DNA of 21,908 nt from Candidatus Heimdallarchaeota archaeon (GTDB lineage: Archaea > Asgardarchaeota > Heimdallarchaeia > JABLTI01): contig DXJV01000010.1 in the NCBI GenBank assembly GCA_019056785.1, positions 1 through 21,908 on the forward strand, written 5' to 3'. The translations under genes and the position numbers were made by a program. Below, piece after piece: positions 4,554 through 13,122 of the stretch; within the stretch, counting starts at the first letter, position 1; each line of letters opens with the position of its first letter. The notes below the pieces were generated by a model, which searched no databases, had not been told where the DNA came from, and saw only the letters and a program-made list of their open reading frames with translations.

Positions 4554-5177
4554 ATGAAAAAAGGTGCAAAAATCACTCTTTTTATTTTCCTTGGGTTTGT
4601 TGTTCTTTCAGGGATTTTTATCCCAATTGCCCCGTATATATTTCACTTCAATCCAAAATATGGCACCCCTTCCCTCGAATTTCCCATGCTCGAACCGATG
4701 AACATCACCCGTTTAGCAGCATATCATACACCAGACTGGGGTGAACCCGGCAAATTCCATAATGGCATTGACTTGGCAATCAATGGCCCAACGAAAGTTA
4801 TTTCTCCCTGTTATGGTTGGGTAACCCGCATCCGGTACAATATTAACCCCTATGCCGGCAATGGCGAAGTTGCTATGATCCATGTTTCAATAATGATCAA
4901 TTATGCCTGGAGTGTGAAACTTGTTTTCGAACCTTGGGCGAATACAACGGAATTTCGTGAGAAACAATTAGCAGCGATTATTGTAAAGCCAGGGATGTTT
5001 GTTACTCCTGGCGACTTAATCGGTACGCTTCTTTATAATTATCAATATCCTCATTTGCATTATATGGTCATGAAATTCGAGCGAGATGTTTGTCCTTATA
5101 CTTTTTCCTCCCCAACGGCAAAAAGCATTTTTGAAGACATTGCGGAACGAACAAATTCCACCATTTGTTACCCATAA
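4554..5177 (+). CDS. Membrane-anchored M23-family (LytM-like) zinc metallopeptidase
   Basis: N-terminal basic + hydrophobic anchor; HNGID (HxxxD) and PHLHY (HxH) zinc motifs; VKPGMFVTPGDLIG is the typical M23 strand. Starts 6 nt after the ligase stop, suggesting an operon. Confidence 0.8.
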   Translation: MKKGAKITLFIFLGFVVLSGIFIPIAPYIFHFNPKYGTPSLEFPMLEPMNITRLAAYHTPDWGEPGKFHNGIDLAINGPTKVISPCYGWVTRIRYNINPYAGNGEVAMIHVSIMINYAWSVKLVFEPWANTTEFREKQLAAIIVKPGMFVTPGDLIGTLLYNYQYPHLHYMVMKFERDVCPYTFSSPTAKSIFEDIAERTNSTICYP

Positions 5178-5241
5178 ATTTTGAGAGAAAGCAAATGATA
5201 TTAGAATAGCCAACCGTAACATCCCCTAAGAGTTGATTCCC

Positions 5242-5973
5242 TTGTGTGGAAGATTTGCCCGATTCTCCCCTGCTCATGTTTTTCGCCTTCTGTTTCAGCT
5301 CGAAGAATTTACTAATCTCCCACCACAATACAACATCTCTCCCGGACAAAATATCTATGCCGTTCGTGGAATTGTCCTTCGACAAGAGCGAACACCTAAC
5401 GAAAATTCCCTCAAGAGAATACAGAAGGAAGTAGTTCCTTTACAATGGGGGTTAGTTCCCTTCTGGACGAAAGAACCAACTTTAGGACCAATAAATGCTC
5501 GCGCCGAGACACTCACACAAAAACCCTATTTTAAAACCGCTTTTAAACGCCATCGTTGCTTGATTCCTGTTGATGGTTTTTATGAATGGCAAAAAACACC
5601 AGGCGGGAGCAAACAACCATACTTTATTCGTATGGCTAATGCGAAACCGTTTGCCCTCGCTGGTATTTGGGACCGGTGGGAAGGACCGAACAGCCGAATC
5701 ATCGAATCTTGCGCCATTATCACCACAAAACCGAATAAATTACTTAAAACAATCCATAATCGCATGCCGGCCATTATTCCTCCCTCGGCTTTTGATACCT
5801 GGCTCGACCCTTCACCTGAAAGTCAAGAACGCGCGCTTGCTCTTCTTAAGCCATTTGAGGCCCAGAAGTTAGAAGCCTATGCTGTTGGCGATTATGTTAA
5901 TAATACTAAAAACGAGGGGGAACAGTGTATTTTGCCAAAAAGTGACCGTTACAAACAGCAGAAACTATTCTAA
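5242..5973 (+). CDS. yedK: SRAP family (YedK/HMCES-like) abasic-site DNA-protein crosslinking protein
   Basis: Start moved from 5233 to TTG 5242, giving the family's MCGRF N-terminus with catalytic Cys2; GAGTTGAT SD-like sequence just upstream. Motifs YNISP, WGL, INARAET, RCLIPVDGFYEW, IHNRMP. Confidence 0.95.
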   Translation: MCGRFARFSPAHVFRLLFQLEEFTNLPPQYNISPGQNIYAVRGIVLRQERTPNENSLKRIQKEVVPLQWGLVPFWTKEPTLGPINARAETLTQKPYFKTAFKRHRCLIPVDGFYEWQKTPGGSKQPYFIRMANAKPFALAGIWDRWEGPNSRIIESCAIITTKPNKLLKTIHNRMPAIIPPSAFDTWLDPSPESQERALALLKPFEAQKLEAYAVGDYVNNTKNEGEQCILPKSDRYKQQKLF

Positions 5974-6140
5974 ATACCTCCTGCGTTTTTTCTCGGAATT
6001 TTTCTCCAGAAACATACTCTTCTCTGCATTTCTTCCGACAAAAATACTTACAGCCGACTCTCACTTTCCCAGATTTTCTTATAGAATCTGCTACTAAGAA
6101 TAGTAGTACTTCAACCGCCACGAAAGAAAAAGGTAAATGA

Positions 6141-9140
6141 GTGAGAGAAACGGATGGCGAGCATCATCAGGAGATCCCAAAAGCCATGAGTAAAAAAAAG
6201 GAGCTACTCTTCCTATTGACTGATCTCTCCTATGAGATTCCGGAAGAGAAGGACCTTCCAATCATTTATCTTTATGGCAGGAGGAAGGAAGGGGAAGTCC
6301 TTGTCAAGGTTCATGGATTTGCACCTTACTTTTATGTTAAAAAAACTCCTGAACTTCCTTTTATCCTTCAAAATGATCCGAAAATTAGTCAATGGCAAAG
6401 AGCTACTGAAGAGCGAACCCTTCGTCAGTATTTTTGGGGCGGAACACCCATCCGGCTTGTAAAAGTTCTAGGAACAAATCCTCGGAAAGTTCGAGAGATT
6501 AGCCGTACATTCGAAAAACTTGGCATAAAAACCTTTGAAACAGACATTCCTTTTTTGAAACGTTTTCTTATTGATAATGACATTAAATGTCTAAATGTTA
6601 TTAAGGTCCGAAGCTCGCAGCTGAGAACCGCCGGAAGAAGAATCTACCTCGAGGTAGGGTATCAAGACGTTTCGCGTGTTTCCGAGGAGGAACTCCCTCG
6701 AGCAACCGATTTTTACCCTTTAAGATTACTGAGTCTAAACATCAAAATTGCTCGCGAAAACGAGAGTTTTGAAGAACTTATGCAGAAAAAGGACAAACCC
6801 ATTCTTGCAATTACCACCATTCTTGGCACAAGCACCAAACCGGCTAAAGCAAAAGTTTTCTTCTTAGAAGACTACTCTCCTGAAGGCGAAAGGAAAATGA
6901 TTCAAAAGTTTCTTGCATTTCTTCAGGAGGTGCAACCCGACATTCTCTGTACCTTTCATGGGGATAACTTTGACCTTCCGTATCTTCTTCACCGCATGAA
7001 ACTCTTGCAAGTGCCAAGCCATGCTTTTTCTTTATTCAATGACGAACCTTGTTACTATTCAAAGAGCTTGCATTCTTTTCGAATGATGGGGCGGATGGTC
7101 TTTGATCTTGCCCTGCGCACTTGGGGCATTCATCCTCCCTCTGGGAAGAAGGGGCTCTACGATATTGCGGAAGTGCTATTGGGGAGAGGAGCCCCAGCAA
7201 CAGTAAGAACGAACCATTCAAACTATTACAAACAAACGCCAACGTTTGAAGAAGTGAACGCTGCGAGAGATTTTTTACACCTATGGCGGCAAGGGTTCTG
7301 CGAAAGAAGAAAAGAGCAGATTAAAGCACTTGCTACCCGTTGTCTTTATGATGCAAAGCTAATTTATGACCTCTTCTGGGAACTGGGAATGTCAGGTTGG
7401 ATTGAAACCTTGCGCGTGACAGGTTTCCCACCTGCAGAAGGAAATAGCTGCACGGAACGGCTGAATGGCGAGTTTGAATTGATGCGGTACATGCGCCGGA
7501 AGGGGATCATCATCCCAAAGCGGCCGGATGCCGACCAAGTAGAAAAGAATCGCCTCATTCGTCAGCAATATCCCCATGAAGGGGGAACCGTTTTGTATCC
7601 GAAAGGGACACTTCATATTGGCGTGCTTATCGCCGACTTTCAATCAATGTACCCCTCAGTGATGATTGCCCAAAATATCGGTGGCGAAACAATCAAACAA
7701 TGGGTTGAGGGGAGTGATTATGGCGACCCTAAGAAACTTTTTGAGCAGCAGTCACGTTCTTGTCTAGCGATCATGGAAAAGGCTCTCATTAAAAAACGAA
7801 TGGCAAAGAAGAAACAGATAAATCAATTGCAAGAGCAGCTAAAACAAACGACAGATGCTGTCGCACGAAGGACACTCGAAGAAAAGATTGCAATTCTCCA
7901 ACGAGAACAAAATTCAATGAAAATAGTTGCAAATAGCATGTATGGGGCCCACTTCTACATTCGAAGCCGCTTCTACACTCAAACTTTGGCTGCAGCCATT
8001 GCCAATAGCGCGCGCGATTATCTTTTAGGAATTGAAAAACAGCTCGAAATACTCAGCAAGAAGCTGGTGCCATGCGAGCTCATTTACGGTGACACAGACA
8101 GTGCATTTATTAAAATTCATGCAGAAGAGCTCTTTACAAAAATACACGCGGAACGAGACGCTCCCCGGCGAGAACAACTAATTGCAAAACTAATGCTCCT
8201 CGTAAATGCCCTTTTAAAAGCAATTAATGATAATTTGCCTTCTCCTGTCCAATTGAAATTTGAGGATGTAGCTTACCGCATCATTTTCAAACCCGAGCGC
8301 AAAAAAGCATACAGCTACTCGAGTCTCCTTTCAAACGAATTCGTAATTAAAGGCTTTGAAGCGGTCCGCTCTGATTGGTCGCCTCTTGCTCGGCAGGCGC
8401 AACGAAAGGTGCTTGAAATACTATTAAATTACCCGAAAGCTACTGCAGAAACAACTTTAACCGAATTCCAACTTGCAAAACGATTTCTTATTGCATTGGG
8501 TGTGAAAGTCCTTCAAATGCCCTCGGAACTGCTTCTCCCAAAAGTTGTCATCCTTTCACCGATTCGACAACCACCAGAAAACTATAAAGGGAAAACACCG
8601 GCTGTCGTGGCCTTCAGCCATTTTGCTCAAATGGAAGGAGTAGATGTATCAAAAGCATGGATGGATTATGACAAGTTTCCATGGGTTATCGTTGCCGGAA
8701 AGGGAAGCATCTATGAACGTGCGAGACACCCGAAATTTGCCGAGGAAATCGATCGCGAACATTATGTCAAGGAAATGCTTCGTTGTTGCGAAGGGCTTGG
8801 TGTCAAAGTTTCTTTAGCAGAAGTAAAAGGCGCCCTTCCCACAGGTCGATTGCCCCATGCCTTTGAGCGTGCACGAGACAAGGGATTGCTCTTGCCCGCA
8901 GAAGAAAAAAGTCCTCTCTCTATAGAGCCCATCAAAACCGGAGAATTAGAGTGGCAAAGGAAAAGCAAAAAGCCAAAACAACGCAGTGTTAGAAGAAAAC
9001 CAGCTGGGCAGTTGGCATTAACACAATTTTCTCACTTGCCAACAAAAGAGGAGGAAAAAGGAAGAACGAAGAACAAGAACCAGACCGAGCCAGAGCAAGG
9101 TGAGGGAAAACTCGTTCCCCAAAAACTCATTGTAAAATAG
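6141..9140 (+). CDS. polB: Family B DNA polymerase (archaeal PolB3-like layout) with degenerate 3'-5' exonuclease
   Basis: Polymerase motifs A ADFQSMYPS, B KIVANSMYG, C YGDTDS, and KGFEAVRSDW. Archaeal N-terminal domain (GFAPYFY, FETDIPFLKRFLID). ExoI reads LSLNIKI instead of aFDIET; ExoII TFHGDNFDLPYL; ExoIII RCLYDA. Start may be ATG 6186. Confidence 0.95.
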   Translation: MRETDGEHHQEIPKAMSKKKELLFLLTDLSYEIPEEKDLPIIYLYGRRKEGEVLVKVHGFAPYFYVKKTPELPFILQNDPKISQWQRATEERTLRQYFWGGTPIRLVKVLGTNPRKVREISRTFEKLGIKTFETDIPFLKRFLIDNDIKCLNVIKVRSSQLRTAGRRIYLEVGYQDVSRVSEEELPRATDFYPLRLLSLNIKIARENESFEELMQKKDKPILAITTILGTSTKPAKAKVFFLEDYSPEGERKMIQKFLAFLQEVQPDILCTFHGDNFDLPYLLHRMKLLQVPSHAFSLFNDEPCYYSKSLHSFRMMGRMVFDLALRTWGIHPPSGKKGLYDIAEVLLGRGAPATVRTNHSNYYKQTPTFEEVNAARDFLHLWRQGFCERRKEQIKALATRCLYDAKLIYDLFWELGMSGWIETLRVTGFPPAEGNSCTERLNGEFELMRYMRRKGIIIPKRPDADQVEKNRLIRQQYPHEGGTVLYPKGTLHIGVLIADFQSMYPSVMIAQNIGGETIKQWVEGSDYGDPKKLFEQQSRSCLAIMEKALIKKRMAKKKQINQLQEQLKQTTDAVARRTLEEKIAILQREQNSMKIVANSMYGAHFYIRSRFYTQTLAAAIANSARDYLLGIEKQLEILSKKLVPCELIYGDTDSAFIKIHAEELFTKIHAERDAPRREQLIAKLMLLVNALLKAINDNLPSPVQLKFEDVAYRIIFKPERKKAYSYSSLLSNEFVIKGFEAVRSDWSPLARQAQRKVLEILLNYPKATAETTLTEFQLAKRFLIALGVKVLQMPSELLLPKVVILSPIRQPPENYKGKTPAVVAFSHFAQMEGVDVSKAWMDYDKFPWVIVAGKGSIYERARHPKFAEEIDREHYVKEMLRCCEGLGVKVSLAEVKGALPTGRLPHAFERARDKGLLLPAEEKSPLSIEPIKTGELEWQRKSKKPKQRSVRRKPAGQLALTQFSHLPTKEEEKGRTKNKNQTEPEQGEGKLVPQKLIVK

Positions 9141-9178
9141 AGAAATCACCTTAGTCTTTTTTTATCAGAAATAGATTC

Positions 9179-10165
9179 TTATCGTTCAGCAAGCATCTTT
9201 TCTTCAAATTCCTCTTCATGCTTTTTTAACCAGAGGAGGGTTATGTCCTCAATGCTAATTCCTGAAGTTTTAATGTCAATAAATTTCCCCCACTGGATGA
9301 TCCGCTCGTGAATTTCGGTTGCTTCAGAGCGGTTGCTGGCAAAAAAGCGGCACATACCACCGATCATTTCATAACGCGGCCAAATCTCCTCGGCTTCTTT
9401 CTTTTTAATAGTACCTTTTGGGATGAGCATTATATCATACATATAATTAAATTCTGATTGTAATTTCGCCACATCTACCATCCCTTTCACCGTACCGCCT
9501 AAAGCAATGAGTAAGATTTTATCACATAAAACATCTACAACCTCTGGGTCGTGGTCCACCAGTACTAACGTTCGCTCGCGTCCTTGTTTCTCGAGGAAAT
9601 CTAGAACAACTTGCTTCCGGCGAAAATCTATACCATTTGTTGGTTCGTCTGCAAAAAGGATTTCAGGGTTTTTTTGGAGGCCCACACAGAGCCGAGTGAT
9701 AGCTTTTTGCCCCTCACTAAATGTCTCGAGTTTTGTATGCCAGAGATGGTCGAGTTGTAATTCCTCGATAAACTCTTTGGCAAGTGCCATGTCGCCATTT
9801 GTCACTTTAACGAAAAAGTCAATAGTTTGTTTTAAAGTGAGTTTCTTTTGAAAATCCATTGCTGGTGAGACAAAACTAATCCGTTTTCGTACCTCAGGTG
9901 TTTCCTTCATAATGTCATAGCCACAGACAAACGCCTCGCCGCCATCTGGTGAATAAATGGTAGAAAGGGTTTTTAGGAGGGTTGTTTTTCCGGAACCGTT
10001 GGGGCCTAATAAAGCAAGCGAAAGCCCTTTTGGCAGGTCAAAGCTGATGCCATTTAAGACACGTTTCTTCCGTTCCTTTTGAGTTTTTTTCTTTGAGAAT
10101 AAAGTAAAACTTGTAGGGAATTCTTTAATCAACCCATTTGAGACGATAATTTCACTACGTACCAT
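9179..10165 (-). CDS. ABC transporter ATP-binding protein (ABC-2/drug-exporter type)
   Basis: Walker A GPNGSGKT, signature variant FSEGQ, Walker B ILFADEPT, H-loop VDH; AGGTGA SD upstream. Confidence 0.93.
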   Translation of the reverse strand: MVRSEIIVSNGLIKEFPTSFTLFSKKKTQKERKKRVLNGISFDLPKGLSLALLGPNGSGKTTLLKTLSTIYSPDGGEAFVCGYDIMKETPEVRKRISFVSPAMDFQKKLTLKQTIDFFVKVTNGDMALAKEFIEELQLDHLWHTKLETFSEGQKAITRLCVGLQKNPEILFADEPTNGIDFRRKQVVLDFLEKQGRERTLVLVDHDPEVVDVLCDKILLIALGGTVKGMVDVAKLQSEFNYMYDIMLIPKGTIKKKEAEEIWPRYEMIGGMCRFFASNRSEATEIHERIIQWGKFIDIKTSGISIEDITLLWLKKHEEEFEEKMLAER

Positions 10166-11245: not shown

Positions 11246-11674
11246 TTACCATTCTTCATCGAAATCGTCGCTGTCCCAGTCGATATCCTCATCCTCCACT
11301 TCCCAGCTCTCTTCTTCGAGCCAAAGATCCTCATCAGAAATGATTTCTAATGGTTGTGGAATGGCTTTTGCTTTCCCAGATTTTGCTACTGCTTGACCTT
11401 TCTCAATTTTCGCTTTGGTTCTTTTCTTAGACTCTTCCACCTTTGCTTTCTTTGCTTCAGAAGTGATCCAGCTAATCTTAATTGTAAATTCTCCACCCTT
11501 TTTTGTTGAGATGTAATTAATGTCCGTCTTAACTTTCTTTTGTTTTATTGCCACTTCAAATTCCGAGCCTTCCCAAACGACGTCCGGAATGCCTTCATCA
11601 AAAGAGTCAGAAAGGTTCAAAAAGAGTTCAACAAGTGCTTTCTTATCAACTTGTTTGGTCAGCGAATATTTCAT
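11246..11674 (-). CDS. Amphi-Trp-like domain protein with lysine-rich linker and acidic Trp-rich tail
   Basis: Amphipathic helix (KALVELFLNLSDSFDEG) followed by beta strands ending FTIKISW, matching my recollection of the amphi-Trp domain; tail DEDLWLEEESWEVEDEDIDWDSDDFDEEW. Confidence 0.6.
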   Translation of the reverse strand: MKYSLTKQVDKKALVELFLNLSDSFDEGIPDVVWEGSEFEVAIKQKKVKTDINYISTKKGGEFTIKISWITSEAKKAKVEESKKRTKAKIEKGQAVAKSGKAKAIPQPLEIISDEDLWLEEESWEVEDEDIDWDSDDFDEEW

Positions 11675-11877: not shown

Positions 11878-13122
11878 TTGTCAGAAGCAGCAGAAATCTA
11901 TACAGCTCTTGAGGAAGCATGCGTGAAAAAGCAATTCAATACTGTTGAAGAGCTCTTAAAGAAATTAGCAGAAATAATTGCTGAAGAAAAAACCTCACAA
12001 GAATTATATGTAAAAGGGATCATTAAAGCTCTTACTACTTTTAAAGGGAAATTCCCTGTGTCAAAAATACGAAGCTTTATTGAAAATGTGGAACAAATTG
12101 TGAAGGAAAATCCAACACATGAAGAATTAGCTATTTCCTATGCAAAAACATTACGAAGCTCCCTCATTGCCATTAAAACTAAAGGGCAACCTTACTTGAT
12201 GCGAGAGATTATTACTGACCTCGAGAATTTCGCTAAAAACTATCCTGAAAACGTGACAATTTATGAAGAACTTTCTATGGCTTCTAACGAAATAATTAAT
12301 TATTGGAAAAAGCGTGGCGATTATAAAGCATTGCAAGAGCAGAGTAAAAAGTTACGAGAATTTGCGAAAAAATTCCCGGAAAATGAGACGATTCAATTAC
12401 AATTATCAAAATCCATCGTTGCTGAGATTGGCAGCATTAGAAAACTGGACATTGGGAAGATTGACAAACTATTACTTGAAATTCAAAACCTTTCTGAATC
12501 TCGCCCAACCAATAAAGGGTTACAACTTGAATGGGTTCACGCTTATCGAACAGCAATGGACCGGAGCGAAGAAAAACCTAAAGATGCAAAGCGATGGCTT
12601 GAGTCGATGAAAAAAATTGCTGGGGACAAGAAAGACATTGCATTCAGAATTGAGCTGGCAAAAGGATACAAAAATGCAATAATTGTCCTTGGCGCGAAGA
12701 GTGAAGAGCTTAAAAAATTACTCGCTGAGTTTAATGCTTTGATAGATAATACTACACCAAATGTAGAATTATACACGGTATATGCTCAAACATTGCTAGA
12801 AGCCTTAAAGATTATTGGGATTACTAATTATCAACATACGAAGGAAATTCTGGGGCGCTTAAGAAAACTACTTGATGACTTTCCAGAAGCAAAACCCATT
12901 CTCAACGCCTATTTAGAATCTCTCGTGGGCATCATTGGCCTGCTCTCTAACGAAAAGAAAGGAGAAGAAGTTTACGAGTTGCTAAAATCTTTTGAAGATT
13001 TACAACAAAGATTTCCCAAAGATAAAACGGTTCAACTAGTTTATCAACAACTCACAGACATACTTCGAATGCTGGGATTTAAAAAACAAAAAAGGAAAAA
13101 TGTTCGACCGGAATATCTTTGA
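11878..13122 (+). CDS. Hypothetical alpha-helical repeat (TPR/HEAT-like solenoid) protein
   Basis: 414 aa, all-helical character, ~43-aa periodic motif (NYPENVTIYEELS, KFPENETIQLQLS, DFPEAKPILNAYL, RFPKDKTVQLVYQ); GAGGT SD before TTG. Confidence 0.8.
   Translation: MSEAAEIYTALEEACVKKQFNTVEELLKKLAEIIAEEKTSQELYVKGIIKALTTFKGKFPVSKIRSFIENVEQIVKENPTHEELAISYAKTLRSSLIAIKTKGQPYLMREIITDLENFAKNYPENVTIYEELSMASNEIINYWKKRGDYKALQEQSKKLREFAKKFPENETIQLQLSKSIVAEIGSIRKLDIGKIDKLLLEIQNLSESRPTNKGLQLEWVHAYRTAMDRSEEKPKDAKRWLESMKKIAGDKKDIAFRIELAKGYKNAIIVLGAKSEELKKLLAEFNALIDNTTPNVELYTVYAQTLLEALKIIGITNYQHTKEILGRLRKLLDDFPEAKPILNAYLESLVGIIGLLSNEKKGEEVYELLKSFEDLQQRFPKDKTVQLVYQQLTDILRMLGFKKQKRKNVRPEYL

Follow-up and report, generated by a model that had tools for sequence, protein, structure and literature searches.

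The SRAP protein HMCES has been reported to carry a C-terminal PIP box, and the coordination of HMCES-type protection with translesion synthesis is still debated in eukaryotes, close to which recent phylogenomic papers place the archaeal class studied here. SRAP genes cluster with UmuCD, DinB and ImuAB-DnaE2 (PMC3765255) and also with PolB2 operons (PMC11791011), and the exonuclease-less PolB2 is a damage-inducible translesion polymerase of Sulfolobus (PMC7544198, PMC8764526). Here we analyse DNA of Candidatus Heimdallarchaeota archaeon (GCA_019056785.1, contig DXJV01000010.1, positions 1-21,908, forward strand; this whole stretch is called the window). In one family of the Heimdall group of Asgard archaea, a SRAP gene is almost always the close upstream neighbour of the gene for an additional family-B polymerase (hereafter PolBx) that has lost proofreading and kept an intact polymerase site. 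As far as sequence can tell, SRAP-PolBx seems to be a damage-bypass gene pair of separate evolutionary origin, and we found no publication describing it.

Both genes had been correctly named in a preliminary description of the DNA; their Pfam domains and catalytic motifs are confirmed. The upstream gene comprises the following features.

5242..5973, + strand: SRAP (HMCES/YedK family) gene, 243 aa, TTG start, assigned by Pfam, PDB relatives and conserved residues.
5953..5970, + strand: C-terminal K-Q-Q-K-L-F motif, specific to PolBx-linked SRAPs, from a comparison of C-termini.

Pfam SRAP (PF02586) matches with an E-value of 2.4e-69, its 233.5 bits exceeding the curated threshold of 27.1, and the match spans positions 1-213 of a profile of 214. 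The PDB relatives are BT_1218 (8e-31), HMCES (1.6e-29) and YedK (5.5e-20 to 4.5e-19). The codon after TTG 5242 is TGT, so that Cys-Gly-Arg stands directly behind the start and Cys is residue 2. Residues C2, N85, E115 and H172 do not vary among 12 orthologues and line up with their counterparts in HMCES and YedK, the last three presumably corresponding to YedK N75, E105 and H160. The protein is intact, as first described: Cys2 is there, and so are the catalytic Asn, Glu and His. It is the one SRAP gene found in this genome. SRAPs linked to PolBx form a subgroup of their own (52-64% identity, versus 30-38% for other Heimdall SRAPs) and end in KQQKLF, KQTKLF, KQTTLF, RQQKLL or KQQTLE, whereas in other Heimdall families the SRAP C-terminus is a canonical PIP box, QxxLxxFF, and the gene has no polymerase neighbour.

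The polymerase gene and its motifs are laid out as follows.

6186..9140, + strand: PolBx, a family-B polymerase of 984 aa and a paralogue of B3 type, with the polymerase site intact and the exonuclease dead, by Pfam, PDB search, alignment and tree.
6729..6752, + strand: ExoI region LSLNIKIA, with DxE replaced by N185-x-K187 in the alignment.
6951..6986, + strand: ExoII region TFHGDNFDLPYL, with Asn replaced by H258 and D263 kept (FHGDNFD), from the alignment.
7338..7373, + strand: ExoIII region RCLYDAKLIYDL, with Tyr replaced by R385 and D389 kept (RCLYD), from the alignment.
7626..8108, + strand: canonical polymerase motifs A (7626-7658, LIADFQSMYPS), B (7920-7949, KIVANSMYGA) and C (8082-8108, IYGDTDSAF), from the alignment.
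8922..8960, + strand: tail motif peculiar to PolBx, I-x-P-x-x-x-G-E-L-x-W and then a basic stretch, from conservation.
9009..9032, + strand: PIP-like motif G-Q-L-A-L-T-Q-F-S (QxxLxx[FY]), from conservation.

DNA_pol_B (PF00136, 5.4e-43) and DNA_pol_B_exo1 (PF03104, 8.9e-26) are both matched, and the polymerase residues D484, Y489, K579, N583, Y586, G587, D636 and D638 are invariant in 20 PolBx orthologues, with palm and finger regions as the best-conserved large domain. The earlier reading of a complete polymerase site beside a degenerate exonuclease holds: proofreading PolBs carry ExoI DxE, ExoII Nx2-3(F/Y)D and ExoIII Yx3D, and PolBx has NxK, His and Arg at these sites. In most orthologues the ExoI Asp has become N, T or S and the Glu has become K, the exceptions being P0012 (KVE), P0017 (KLT) and P0019 (KVI). 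Judged by conservation, this degeneration is not chance decay and the domain is still constrained, because the pattern recurs in each of the 20 full-length orthologues (48-69% identity) and, scaled to the palm, the exonuclease domain is conserved to about the degree seen in the proofreading clade (exonuclease/palm identity ratio 0.80, versus 0.84 there). Within the tail motif, I913, P915, L921 and W923 are invariant or nearly so, and the motif is absent from the proofreading paralogues. The PIP-like motif has an invariant Q942 and a nearly invariant L945, and paralogues carry KQTKLSxFF at the matching place. PolBx also retains PY, P..V and DIPF residues that align with what we take to be the uracil-sensing pocket of Thermococcales PolB.

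The closest relative of PolBx in the same genome is a proofreading PolB3-type enzyme on contig C60 (44% identity). In a tree that included no named B2 or B3 reference enzymes, PolBx and the proofreading B3-type clade of the family are sister groups (SH-aLRT 100), nested inside a Heimdall B3-like clade (support 100) with eukaryotic Pol delta outside, a placement that goes against kinship with Pol zeta/Rev3. Sso Dpo1 (1s5j) is not among the 60 PDB matches listed for PolBx and matches the enzyme on C47 at 2.7e-223. By these comparisons PolBx is a lineage-specific paralogue of the PolB3-type enzyme, and neither a PolB2 nor a Rev3 orthologue. The separate proofreading PolB that the preliminary description had proposed to look for is present twice, as PolB1 on C47 and the PolB3-type enzyme on C60, all exonuclease motifs being intact. 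Since the genome keeps these two as well as PolD and a single Y-family polymerase (on contig C65), PolBx appears to be an extra, specialised enzyme.

Among solved structures, archaeal PolB3 enzymes (Thermococcales, Pyrococcus, Pyrobaculum; PDB 4flt, 4k8z, 5mdn) are the best relatives of PolBx, with E-values of 3e-38 to 1e-34, and share with it the domain order, polymerase motifs, N-terminal PY/DIPF residues and C-terminal PIP-like motif. Those enzymes proofread, whereas in PolBx the carboxylates of ExoI, the Asn of ExoII and the Tyr of ExoIII are gone and a GELxW-plus-basic tail has been added. The iRadA-PPB2-PolB2 (Dpo2) operon offers another likeness, PolB2 being a proofreading-free archaeal PolB additional to the replicative ones, with SRAP enriched beside it (PMC11791011, PMC7544198, PMC8764526) and a PCNA-type tail motif in some members. 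PolB2 is marked by a one-Asp motif C with a D(K/R) loop, a missing ExoIII and adjacent iRadA/PPB2; PolBx, at 984 aa, has instead the canonical motif C YGDTDS and a full-size conserved exonuclease domain including the ExoIII region, and has neither iRadA nor PPB2 as neighbour. This motif state, the neighbours and the branching among Heimdall B3-like enzymes point to an independent origin of PolBx rather than membership of PolB2.

HMCES with Pol zeta (Rev3) resembles the locus in combining a Cys2 SRAP with an exonuclease-dead PolB that goes back, by duplication, to a proofreading enzyme (Pol zeta to Pol delta, PolBx to the PolB3-type polymerase), and the PIP box of HMCES has its like on Heimdall SRAPs outside the PolBx-linked lineage. 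However, the HMCES and Pol zeta genes do not lie together, PolBx matches Pol zeta in the PDB at only 5e-9 compared with 1e-35 for Thermococcales PolB, and it lacks both the Cys-rich C-terminal metal-binding domain (there is no Cys in the tail) and the Rev3-specific insert. Bacterial SOS associations (UmuCD, DinB, ImuA-ImuB-DnaE2; Aravind, Anand and Iyer 2013, PMC3765255) likewise set SRAP beside an error-prone or proofreading-free polymerase, but of families Y and C where ours is of family B, and the promoter architecture here is archaeal. Mutasome-type partners (iRadA/PPB2, UmuD, ImuA/B) and LexA were not found, and a Pfam scan of the window gave no Y-family or DnaE2 subunit with UmuD or ImuA/B.

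The adjacency extends beyond one genome, as had been put up for checking: SRAP lies directly upstream of PolBx in 14 of 17 distinct contexts, namely this genome, G072, G074, G075, G076, G078, G081, G082, G022 and G073, and the metagenome contigs L014, L017/L018, L052 and L053. G022 belongs to another family and has the pair on a short contig. L014 keeps the pair despite a different upstream neighbourhood, with a spacer of only 39 nt, and both L014 and L015 keep it without the ABC transporter genes found downstream in the window. The three contexts of the clade with no SRAP upstream are P0022, P0043 and P0044, and G077 has neither gene. The other neighbours in the window (AMP-binding, M23-like, ABC transporter, orf142 and orf414) are also syntenic in the genus. 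The adjacency goes back to one event in evolution, in a block that is broadly syntenic, and common descent could explain part of its conservation. Exonuclease-dead B3-like polymerases without a SRAP neighbour occur in four independent lineages (family f3, the Promethearchaeota-type P0047-52 of the same clade, P0084 and P0096); in f3 such a PolB is the only B3-type enzyme and 30 of 31 genomes have no SRAP. The upstream M23-like gene (4554-5177) was considered as a DNA-protein cross-link protease and dropped, since its product has an N-terminal membrane anchor and it is missing from several loci. For orf414 and orf142, the ESM Atlas gives only weak TPR-like and Amphi-Trp leads.

The spacer, first given as 167 nt by counting from GTG 6141, is corrected to 212 nt because the likely PolBx start is ATG 6186, which is preceded by GGAG at 12 nt, is the same start as in orthologues and yields an N-terminus that aligns with the paralogue. 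It holds the following features.

5974..6012, + strand: T-runs TTTTTT and TTTTT directly after the SRAP stop codon, a possible archaeal terminator by sequence reading.
6025..6067, + strand: near-invariant non-coding element TGCATTTCT..CGACAAAAATACTTACAG-N4-CTCTCACTTT, about 43 nt, 5' of the A/T-rich TATA-like box, conserved across loci.
6076..6087, + strand: TATA-like box TTCTTATAGAAT, a candidate PolBx promoter, an A/T-rich box standing at the same alignment position in orthologues.
6170..6173, + strand: GGAG Shine-Dalgarno-like site before ATG 6186, GGAGACC being conserved before orthologue start codons.

Because T-runs and a promoter-like region stand between the genes, SRAP and PolBx probably do not form a single operon in the majority of genomes and would have separate promoters. 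The element of about 43 nt is kept in eight loci whose proteins share only 50-63% identity, and is absent from L014 with its short spacer. No second copy exists in the 2.87-Mb genome within 2 mismatches of an 18-mer; a 13-mer of it matches on C52, inside a coding region, and one-mismatch matches occur at about the number estimated for chance. An Rfam scan of 5100-9400 gave no match near threshold. The Sulfolobus DNA-damage promoter motif is ANTTTC; ACTTTC occurs in the spacer here and in some loci but is ACTTTG in others, and the candidate was dropped.

The impression that the block is richer in GC than the receptor-like gene upstream was borne out by counting (0.439 versus 0.356); compared with a genome value of 0.386, the block stands at the 98.5th percentile of 3.9-kb windows. 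An excess over the flanks of 1-6 points recurs in 7 of 7 orthologous SRAP-PolBx loci, which makes it a property of the genes and rules out recent horizontal import as its cause. The DNA occurs in 20 DNA sequencing runs, from sediment and vent metagenomes, and the runs listed include no RNA run.

As published work associates SRAP with translesion polymerases (PMC3765255, PMC11791011), a damage-tolerance role is the most economical reading, and we put it slightly above even chances that SRAP and PolBx act as a pair in DNA-damage tolerance and that this two-gene arrangement originated within a single Heimdallarchaeial family. One copy of a duplicated proofreading PolB3-type gene would have lost its exonuclease metal ligands, kept the polymerase site and a PCNA-type tail motif, and been retained beside SRAP. 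Catalysis by either protein, lesion bypass, coupling of the two proteins and regulation are here predictions from motifs and gene order. Through Cys2, SRAP would become cross-linked, as a covalent thiazolidine, to an abasic site in the single-stranded template at a stalled fork or gap and so shield it from cleavage. PolBx, unable to excise its own insertions, would not idle at the lesion, and PCNA may recruit it for insertion opposite the lesion, extension past it or gap filling, possibly after the Y-family polymerase has inserted a base. A putative promoter of its own and the strongly conserved upstream element suggest dedicated regulation. The preliminary description saw in the locus a functional analogue of HMCES plus Pol zeta or of the SOS mutasome: the conserved pair and the economy of a damage-tolerance role stand, Rev3 kinship and mutasome partners do not, and we infer an analogy of function at most. 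A stronger version appears doubtful, in which SRAP and PolBx would be a dedicated, physically coupled abasic-site bypass machine, with KQQKLF and the GELxW/basic/PIP-like tails docking mutually or to PCNA, a damage-responsive promoter marked by the 43-nt element, and a convergent HMCES/Pol zeta axis. A complex prediction with alignments, of SRAP with PolBx residues 1-440 and 850-984, scored 0.00, which is no verdict either way.

Several observations would also fit neighbours by descent only, with SRAP acting alone and PolBx serving non-translesion synthesis, such as primer extension after primase (Pol alpha-like) or synthesis that fills repair patches or gaps. Synteny in the genus covers the entire neighbourhood, the adjacency arose once, three members lack SRAP upstream and separate promoters are apparent; exonuclease loss does not require SRAP, as f3 demonstrates, and eukaryotic Pol alpha rows in the alignment have the same ExoI change of D to N and E to K. 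The retained uracil-pocket-like residues are, by alignment, typical of replicative-type archaeal PolB and count against the bypass pair. Against this, the pair persists next to differing upstream neighbours and without the transporter genes, its SRAPs have diverged as a subgroup in which the canonical PIP box was replaced, and SRAP is recurrently tied to error-prone polymerases elsewhere (PMC3765255, PMC11791011); we regard descent alone as rather unlikely. That PolBx is a catalytically silent scaffold for protein-protein contacts, like the C-terminal half of Pol epsilon, seems very improbable given invariant catalytic residues in motifs A, B and C and the conservation of palm and fingers, even though B-family polymerases with inactivated modules are known (PMC7544198) and the tail motifs are clade-specific. 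Least credible of all is a mobile element or provirus whose replication the pair would serve, its raised GC then marking foreign origin. The GC percentile and the short G022 contig might be read in this way, but throughout the genus the pair is found at one chromosomal position and beside one set of flanking genes, no integrase, capsid or other element gene was seen among Pfam-scanned flanks or precomputed Pfam matches of the fetched loci, the GC excess recurs in every orthologous locus, and the sister of PolBx in the tree is the PolB3-type enzyme of the host family itself.

Read as a damage-tolerance pair, SRAP-PolBx would make three independent routes to a proofreading-free PolB beside the replicative ones (PolB2, Pol zeta and the PolB3-derived PolBx), with SRAP genomically tied to two of the three. 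The recurrent exonuclease loss in Heimdall B3-like polymerases (f3, P0084, P0096) bears on the origins of Pol alpha- and Pol zeta-type enzymes from proofreading ancestors, and the conserved spacer element may be a handle for finding an Asgard transcription regulator. Should PolBx bypass abasic sites or SRAP adducts, or extend beyond them, SRAP-PolBx would provide a simple two-protein archaeal model of the coordination between HMCES-type protection and translesion synthesis.

The window lies in a metagenome-assembled genome of 2.87 Mb (102 contigs, of which it is C5; 82.5% complete, 4.1% contaminated), whose nearest protein relatives carry the labels Heimdallarchaeota or Asgard group. It contains an SRAP gene followed by the gene of a family-B polymerase, hereafter PolBx.

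5242-5973, + strand: SRAP gene, 243 aa (Pfam E-value 2.4e-69)
6186-9140, + strand: PolBx gene, family-B polymerase, 984 aa (DNA_pol_B 5.4e-43, exo1 8.9e-26)

The SRAP reading frame begins at TTG 5233 and TGT-GGA-AGA comes straight after TTG 5242; the latter was taken as start because it alone yields the Met-Cys-Gly-Arg N-terminus required by SRAP chemistry. Five loci in the genus use TTG as start codon; more distant ones use ATG. For PolBx, ATG 6186 was preferred to GTG 6141 because of a GGAG 12 nt upstream, identical starts in the orthologues and a paralogue alignment that runs from residue 1. The spacer therefore measures 212 nt, which replaces the 167 nt of the preliminary description.

The polymerase motifs of PolBx are canonical (A DFQSMYPS, B KIVANSMYG, C YGDTDS) and its exonuclease motifs are altered. 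ExoI reads LSLNIKI, with N185 for Asp and K187 for Glu, ExoII reads FHGDNFD, with H258 for Asn and D263 retained, and ExoIII reads RCLYD, with R385 for Tyr and D389 retained. Pfu-type enzymes no longer proofread once both ExoI carboxylates are gone; the preliminary description was therefore correct in placing an intact SRAP gene beside a polymerase-complete PolB with a degenerate exonuclease. About two dozen orthologues, 48-69% identical, came out of a search through 5.8 billion proteins. In all 20 aligned full-length orthologues the ExoI Asp and Glu are replaced, mostly by N/T/S and K, and the ExoII Asn by Q, R or H; the ExoIII Tyr is mostly R, Q or H, and the polymerase catalytic residues are all invariant. 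Judged from these sequences, the degeneracy is not the decay of a single genome. The exonuclease domain, with an exonuclease/palm conservation ratio of 0.80 versus 0.84 in proofreading relatives, is nearly equally conserved and thus kept under selection as a structural part of PolBx. Clustered at 50% among 15 billion proteins, the family shrinks to one or two representatives and is therefore small and lineage-specific. PolBx also retains, in its N-terminal part, the residues aligned with what we take to be the uracil-sensing pocket of Thermococcales PolB.

The genome encodes three PolBs, as well as PolD DP2 and one Y-family polymerase. Besides PolBx these are a PolB1 on contig C47 (match to Sulfolobus Dpo1, 1s5j, 2.7e-223) and a PolB3-type enzyme of 918 aa on contig C60, 44% identical to PolBx along its entire length; both have intact exonuclease motifs, which provides the separate proofreading PolB that the preliminary description had asked for. 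The top solved relatives of PolBx are B3-type enzymes of Pyrobaculum and Thermococcales (3e-38 to 1e-34); Pol delta scores 1.5e-20. In a PolB tree of 48 rows (IQ-TREE, LG+C20 PMSF, quick search) the PolBx clade and the proofreading clade of its family are sisters (SH-aLRT 100), and both are enclosed in a Heimdall-wide B3-like clade (support 100) with eukaryotic Pol delta and alpha outside. PolBx thus arose within this lineage by duplication of a proofreading enzyme, probably of PolB3 type. Orthology to Rev3 was rejected, given the position of Pol delta outside the Heimdall B3-like clade and a match to Pol zeta of only 5e-9; the likeness to HMCES plus Pol zeta drawn earlier would be one of function, without orthology.

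Family f3 of the class (31 genomes, two closed; loci L037, L042, L044 and L045 in G006, G024, G010 and G002) has an exonuclease-dead B3-like PolB of separate origin, its sole B3-like PolB, with intact polymerase motifs, ExoI reading FKIFI, LSLVI or LNLVI and the FD of ExoII lost (P0047-P0052 are in the same clade). A constraint that groups it with PolBx lowers the log-likelihood by 103 units (AU p = 0.0003; LG+G4, with the group chosen post hoc, after the tree was seen), and its exonuclease loss is independent of that of PolBx. SRAP is absent from 30 of the 31 f3 genomes. Two further B3-like representatives, P0084 and P0096, are exonuclease-degenerate; on the contig of the former (L054) the PolB adjoins a HEPN/nucleotidyltransferase pair and a Cas12f1-like TnpB gene. 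No SRAP was found beside the other exonuclease-dead B3-like lineages examined. Eukaryotic Pol alpha (P0072, P0074) carries N-L-K at ExoI, with Asn for Asp and Lys for Glu as in PolBx; this looks convergent in the alignment, and the Lys may substitute for the lost metal ion.

The SRAP, the only one found in the source genome, aligns with HMCES and YedK, and 12 orthologues share its C2, N85, E115 and H172 without exception. At the C-terminus every PolBx-linked SRAP has K-Q-Q-K-L-F or a close variant of it; in Heimdall SRAPs without a PolBx link a canonical PIP box takes that place (QSSLNDFF, QNSLSNYF, KKTLSEFF and similar). PolBx itself has a conserved tail of I-x-P-x-x-x-G-E-L-x-W, a basic run and G-Q-x-x-L-x-x-[FY], and the tail of its proofreading paralogues has the canonical KQTKLSxFF only. 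SRAP homologues of family f6 (L026, L027, L029; G053, G062, G068) start M-P-S-R-F, not M-C-G-R-F, and therefore are without the catalytic Cys2; they retain a C-terminal PIP box (TLSEFF).

In the spacer, T-runs lie directly 3' of the SRAP stop codon, and an element of about 43 nt (6025-6067; invariant CGAC-AAAATACT...C.C.C.CT.T) precedes an A/T-rich TATA-like box. The element occurs once in the source genome and is near-identical across loci with only 50-63% protein identity; it may be the binding site of a regulator or a PolBx core promoter under unusual constraint. The GC-richness previously judged by eye was borne out: the block at 5242-9140 lies at the 98.5th GC percentile of the genome, and SRAP and PolBx are 1-6 GC points above their flanks in seven of seven orthologous loci (L005, L009, L011, L014, L015, L017, L034). 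Three neighbouring genes deserve mention.

4554-5177, + strand: M23 (LytM-type) metallopeptidase homologue with an N-terminal membrane anchor
11246-11674, - strand: orf142, with an acidic, Trp-rich tail
11878-13122, + strand: orf414, with helical repeats

The M23 homologue, conserved upstream of SRAP in many loci, has intact HxxxD and HxH motifs in a host archaeon without peptidoglycan. The two orfs accompany PolBx, lie immediately beside it in L014 and L015/L034 and, in L051, which has no SRAP, are inverted directly upstream of it. Full-length orf414 was found only in family-f1 genomes holding PolBx, and both may be further module members.

Among 83 genomes of the class, SRAP lies directly upstream on the same strand wherever the DNA upstream of PolBx is assembled (G000, G072, G074, G075, G076, G078, G081, G082, G022). 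In G073 the contig terminates inside an SRAP 3' end upstream of PolBx, in G079 and G080 contig ends cut the neighbourhood, and in G077 (90% complete) neither gene was found. G073 has two SRAP copies of 87% DNA identity (L020 = G073:C16, L012 = G073:C45), one upstream of PolBx and the other with AMP-binding and M23 genes upstream as usual and unrelated genes in place of PolBx downstream, which could be strain mixture or duplication with PolBx loss. Deeper-branching orthologues on metagenome contigs also have SRAP directly upstream (P0019, P0017, P0018, P0011, P0015); P0022 and the long-branch pair P0043 and P0044 do not. The adjacency is thus not unique to this genome, the pair being present in 14 distinct contexts and absent from 3.

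Within the genus the pair is part of a syntenic block of AMP-binding, M23-like, SRAP, PolBx, two ABC transporter genes, orf142 and orf414, the association has one origin, and SRAPs of other Heimdall families are 30-38% identical with unrelated neighbours. Because synteny and single origin limit what adjacency can tell, support for a functional link comes from three sides: the pair has survived rearrangements, the linked SRAP subgroup has co-diverged, and SRAP has a published tendency to accompany error-prone polymerases. In L014 the upstream genes differ (V4R, MFS), the downstream ABC transporter genes are missing, and SRAP and PolBx are separated by only 39 nt, a spacing that points to co-transcription at this locus. 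We lean, by a little, towards SRAP and PolBx working as a damage-bypass pair. SRAP would cap abasic sites in single-stranded template DNA, PCNA would bring PolBx in for insertion opposite the lesion, extension past it or gap filling, and PolBx, lacking proofreading, would not be trapped in insertion-excision cycles; extension or gap filling would be likelier than insertion because a Y-family polymerase is present. The main rival, to which the single origin and synteny leave room and which we hold possible but rather doubtful, is a neighbourhood inherited without coupling, PolBx having another proofreading-independent role, for instance Pol alpha-like extension of primers or the synthesis of patches. 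That PolBx is a silent scaffold fits the data poorly and is improbable, and a mobile-element replicase, likewise a poor fit, is more improbable still.

In bacteria SRAP genes tend to adjoin UmuCD, DinB and ImuAB-DnaE2 (PMC3765255), and in both archaea and bacteria they tend to adjoin PolB2 operons (PMC11791011). PolB2, as PMC7544198 and PMC11791011 describe it, has a single Asp in motif C and no ExoIII, and it shares its operon with iRadA and PPB2. Assignment of PolBx to PolB2 was rejected, its motif C having two Asp and its ExoIII region being present; the PolB2 partner proteins are absent from the PolBx locus, which does not belong to the PolB2 mutasome system. A full-text literature search found no paper describing the SRAP-PolBx pair, and portions of a 2025 Asgard replisome study (PMC12680538) and of a 2020 PolB survey (PMC7544198) say nothing of it. 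Neither the pairing of SRAP with a polymerase that cannot proofread nor B-family translesion enzymes with a dead exonuclease are new as such. New is this case: such an enzyme has been derived a third time and independently, here in Heimdallarchaeia and from a PolB3-type polymerase, and it has tail motifs and a candidate promoter element of its own.
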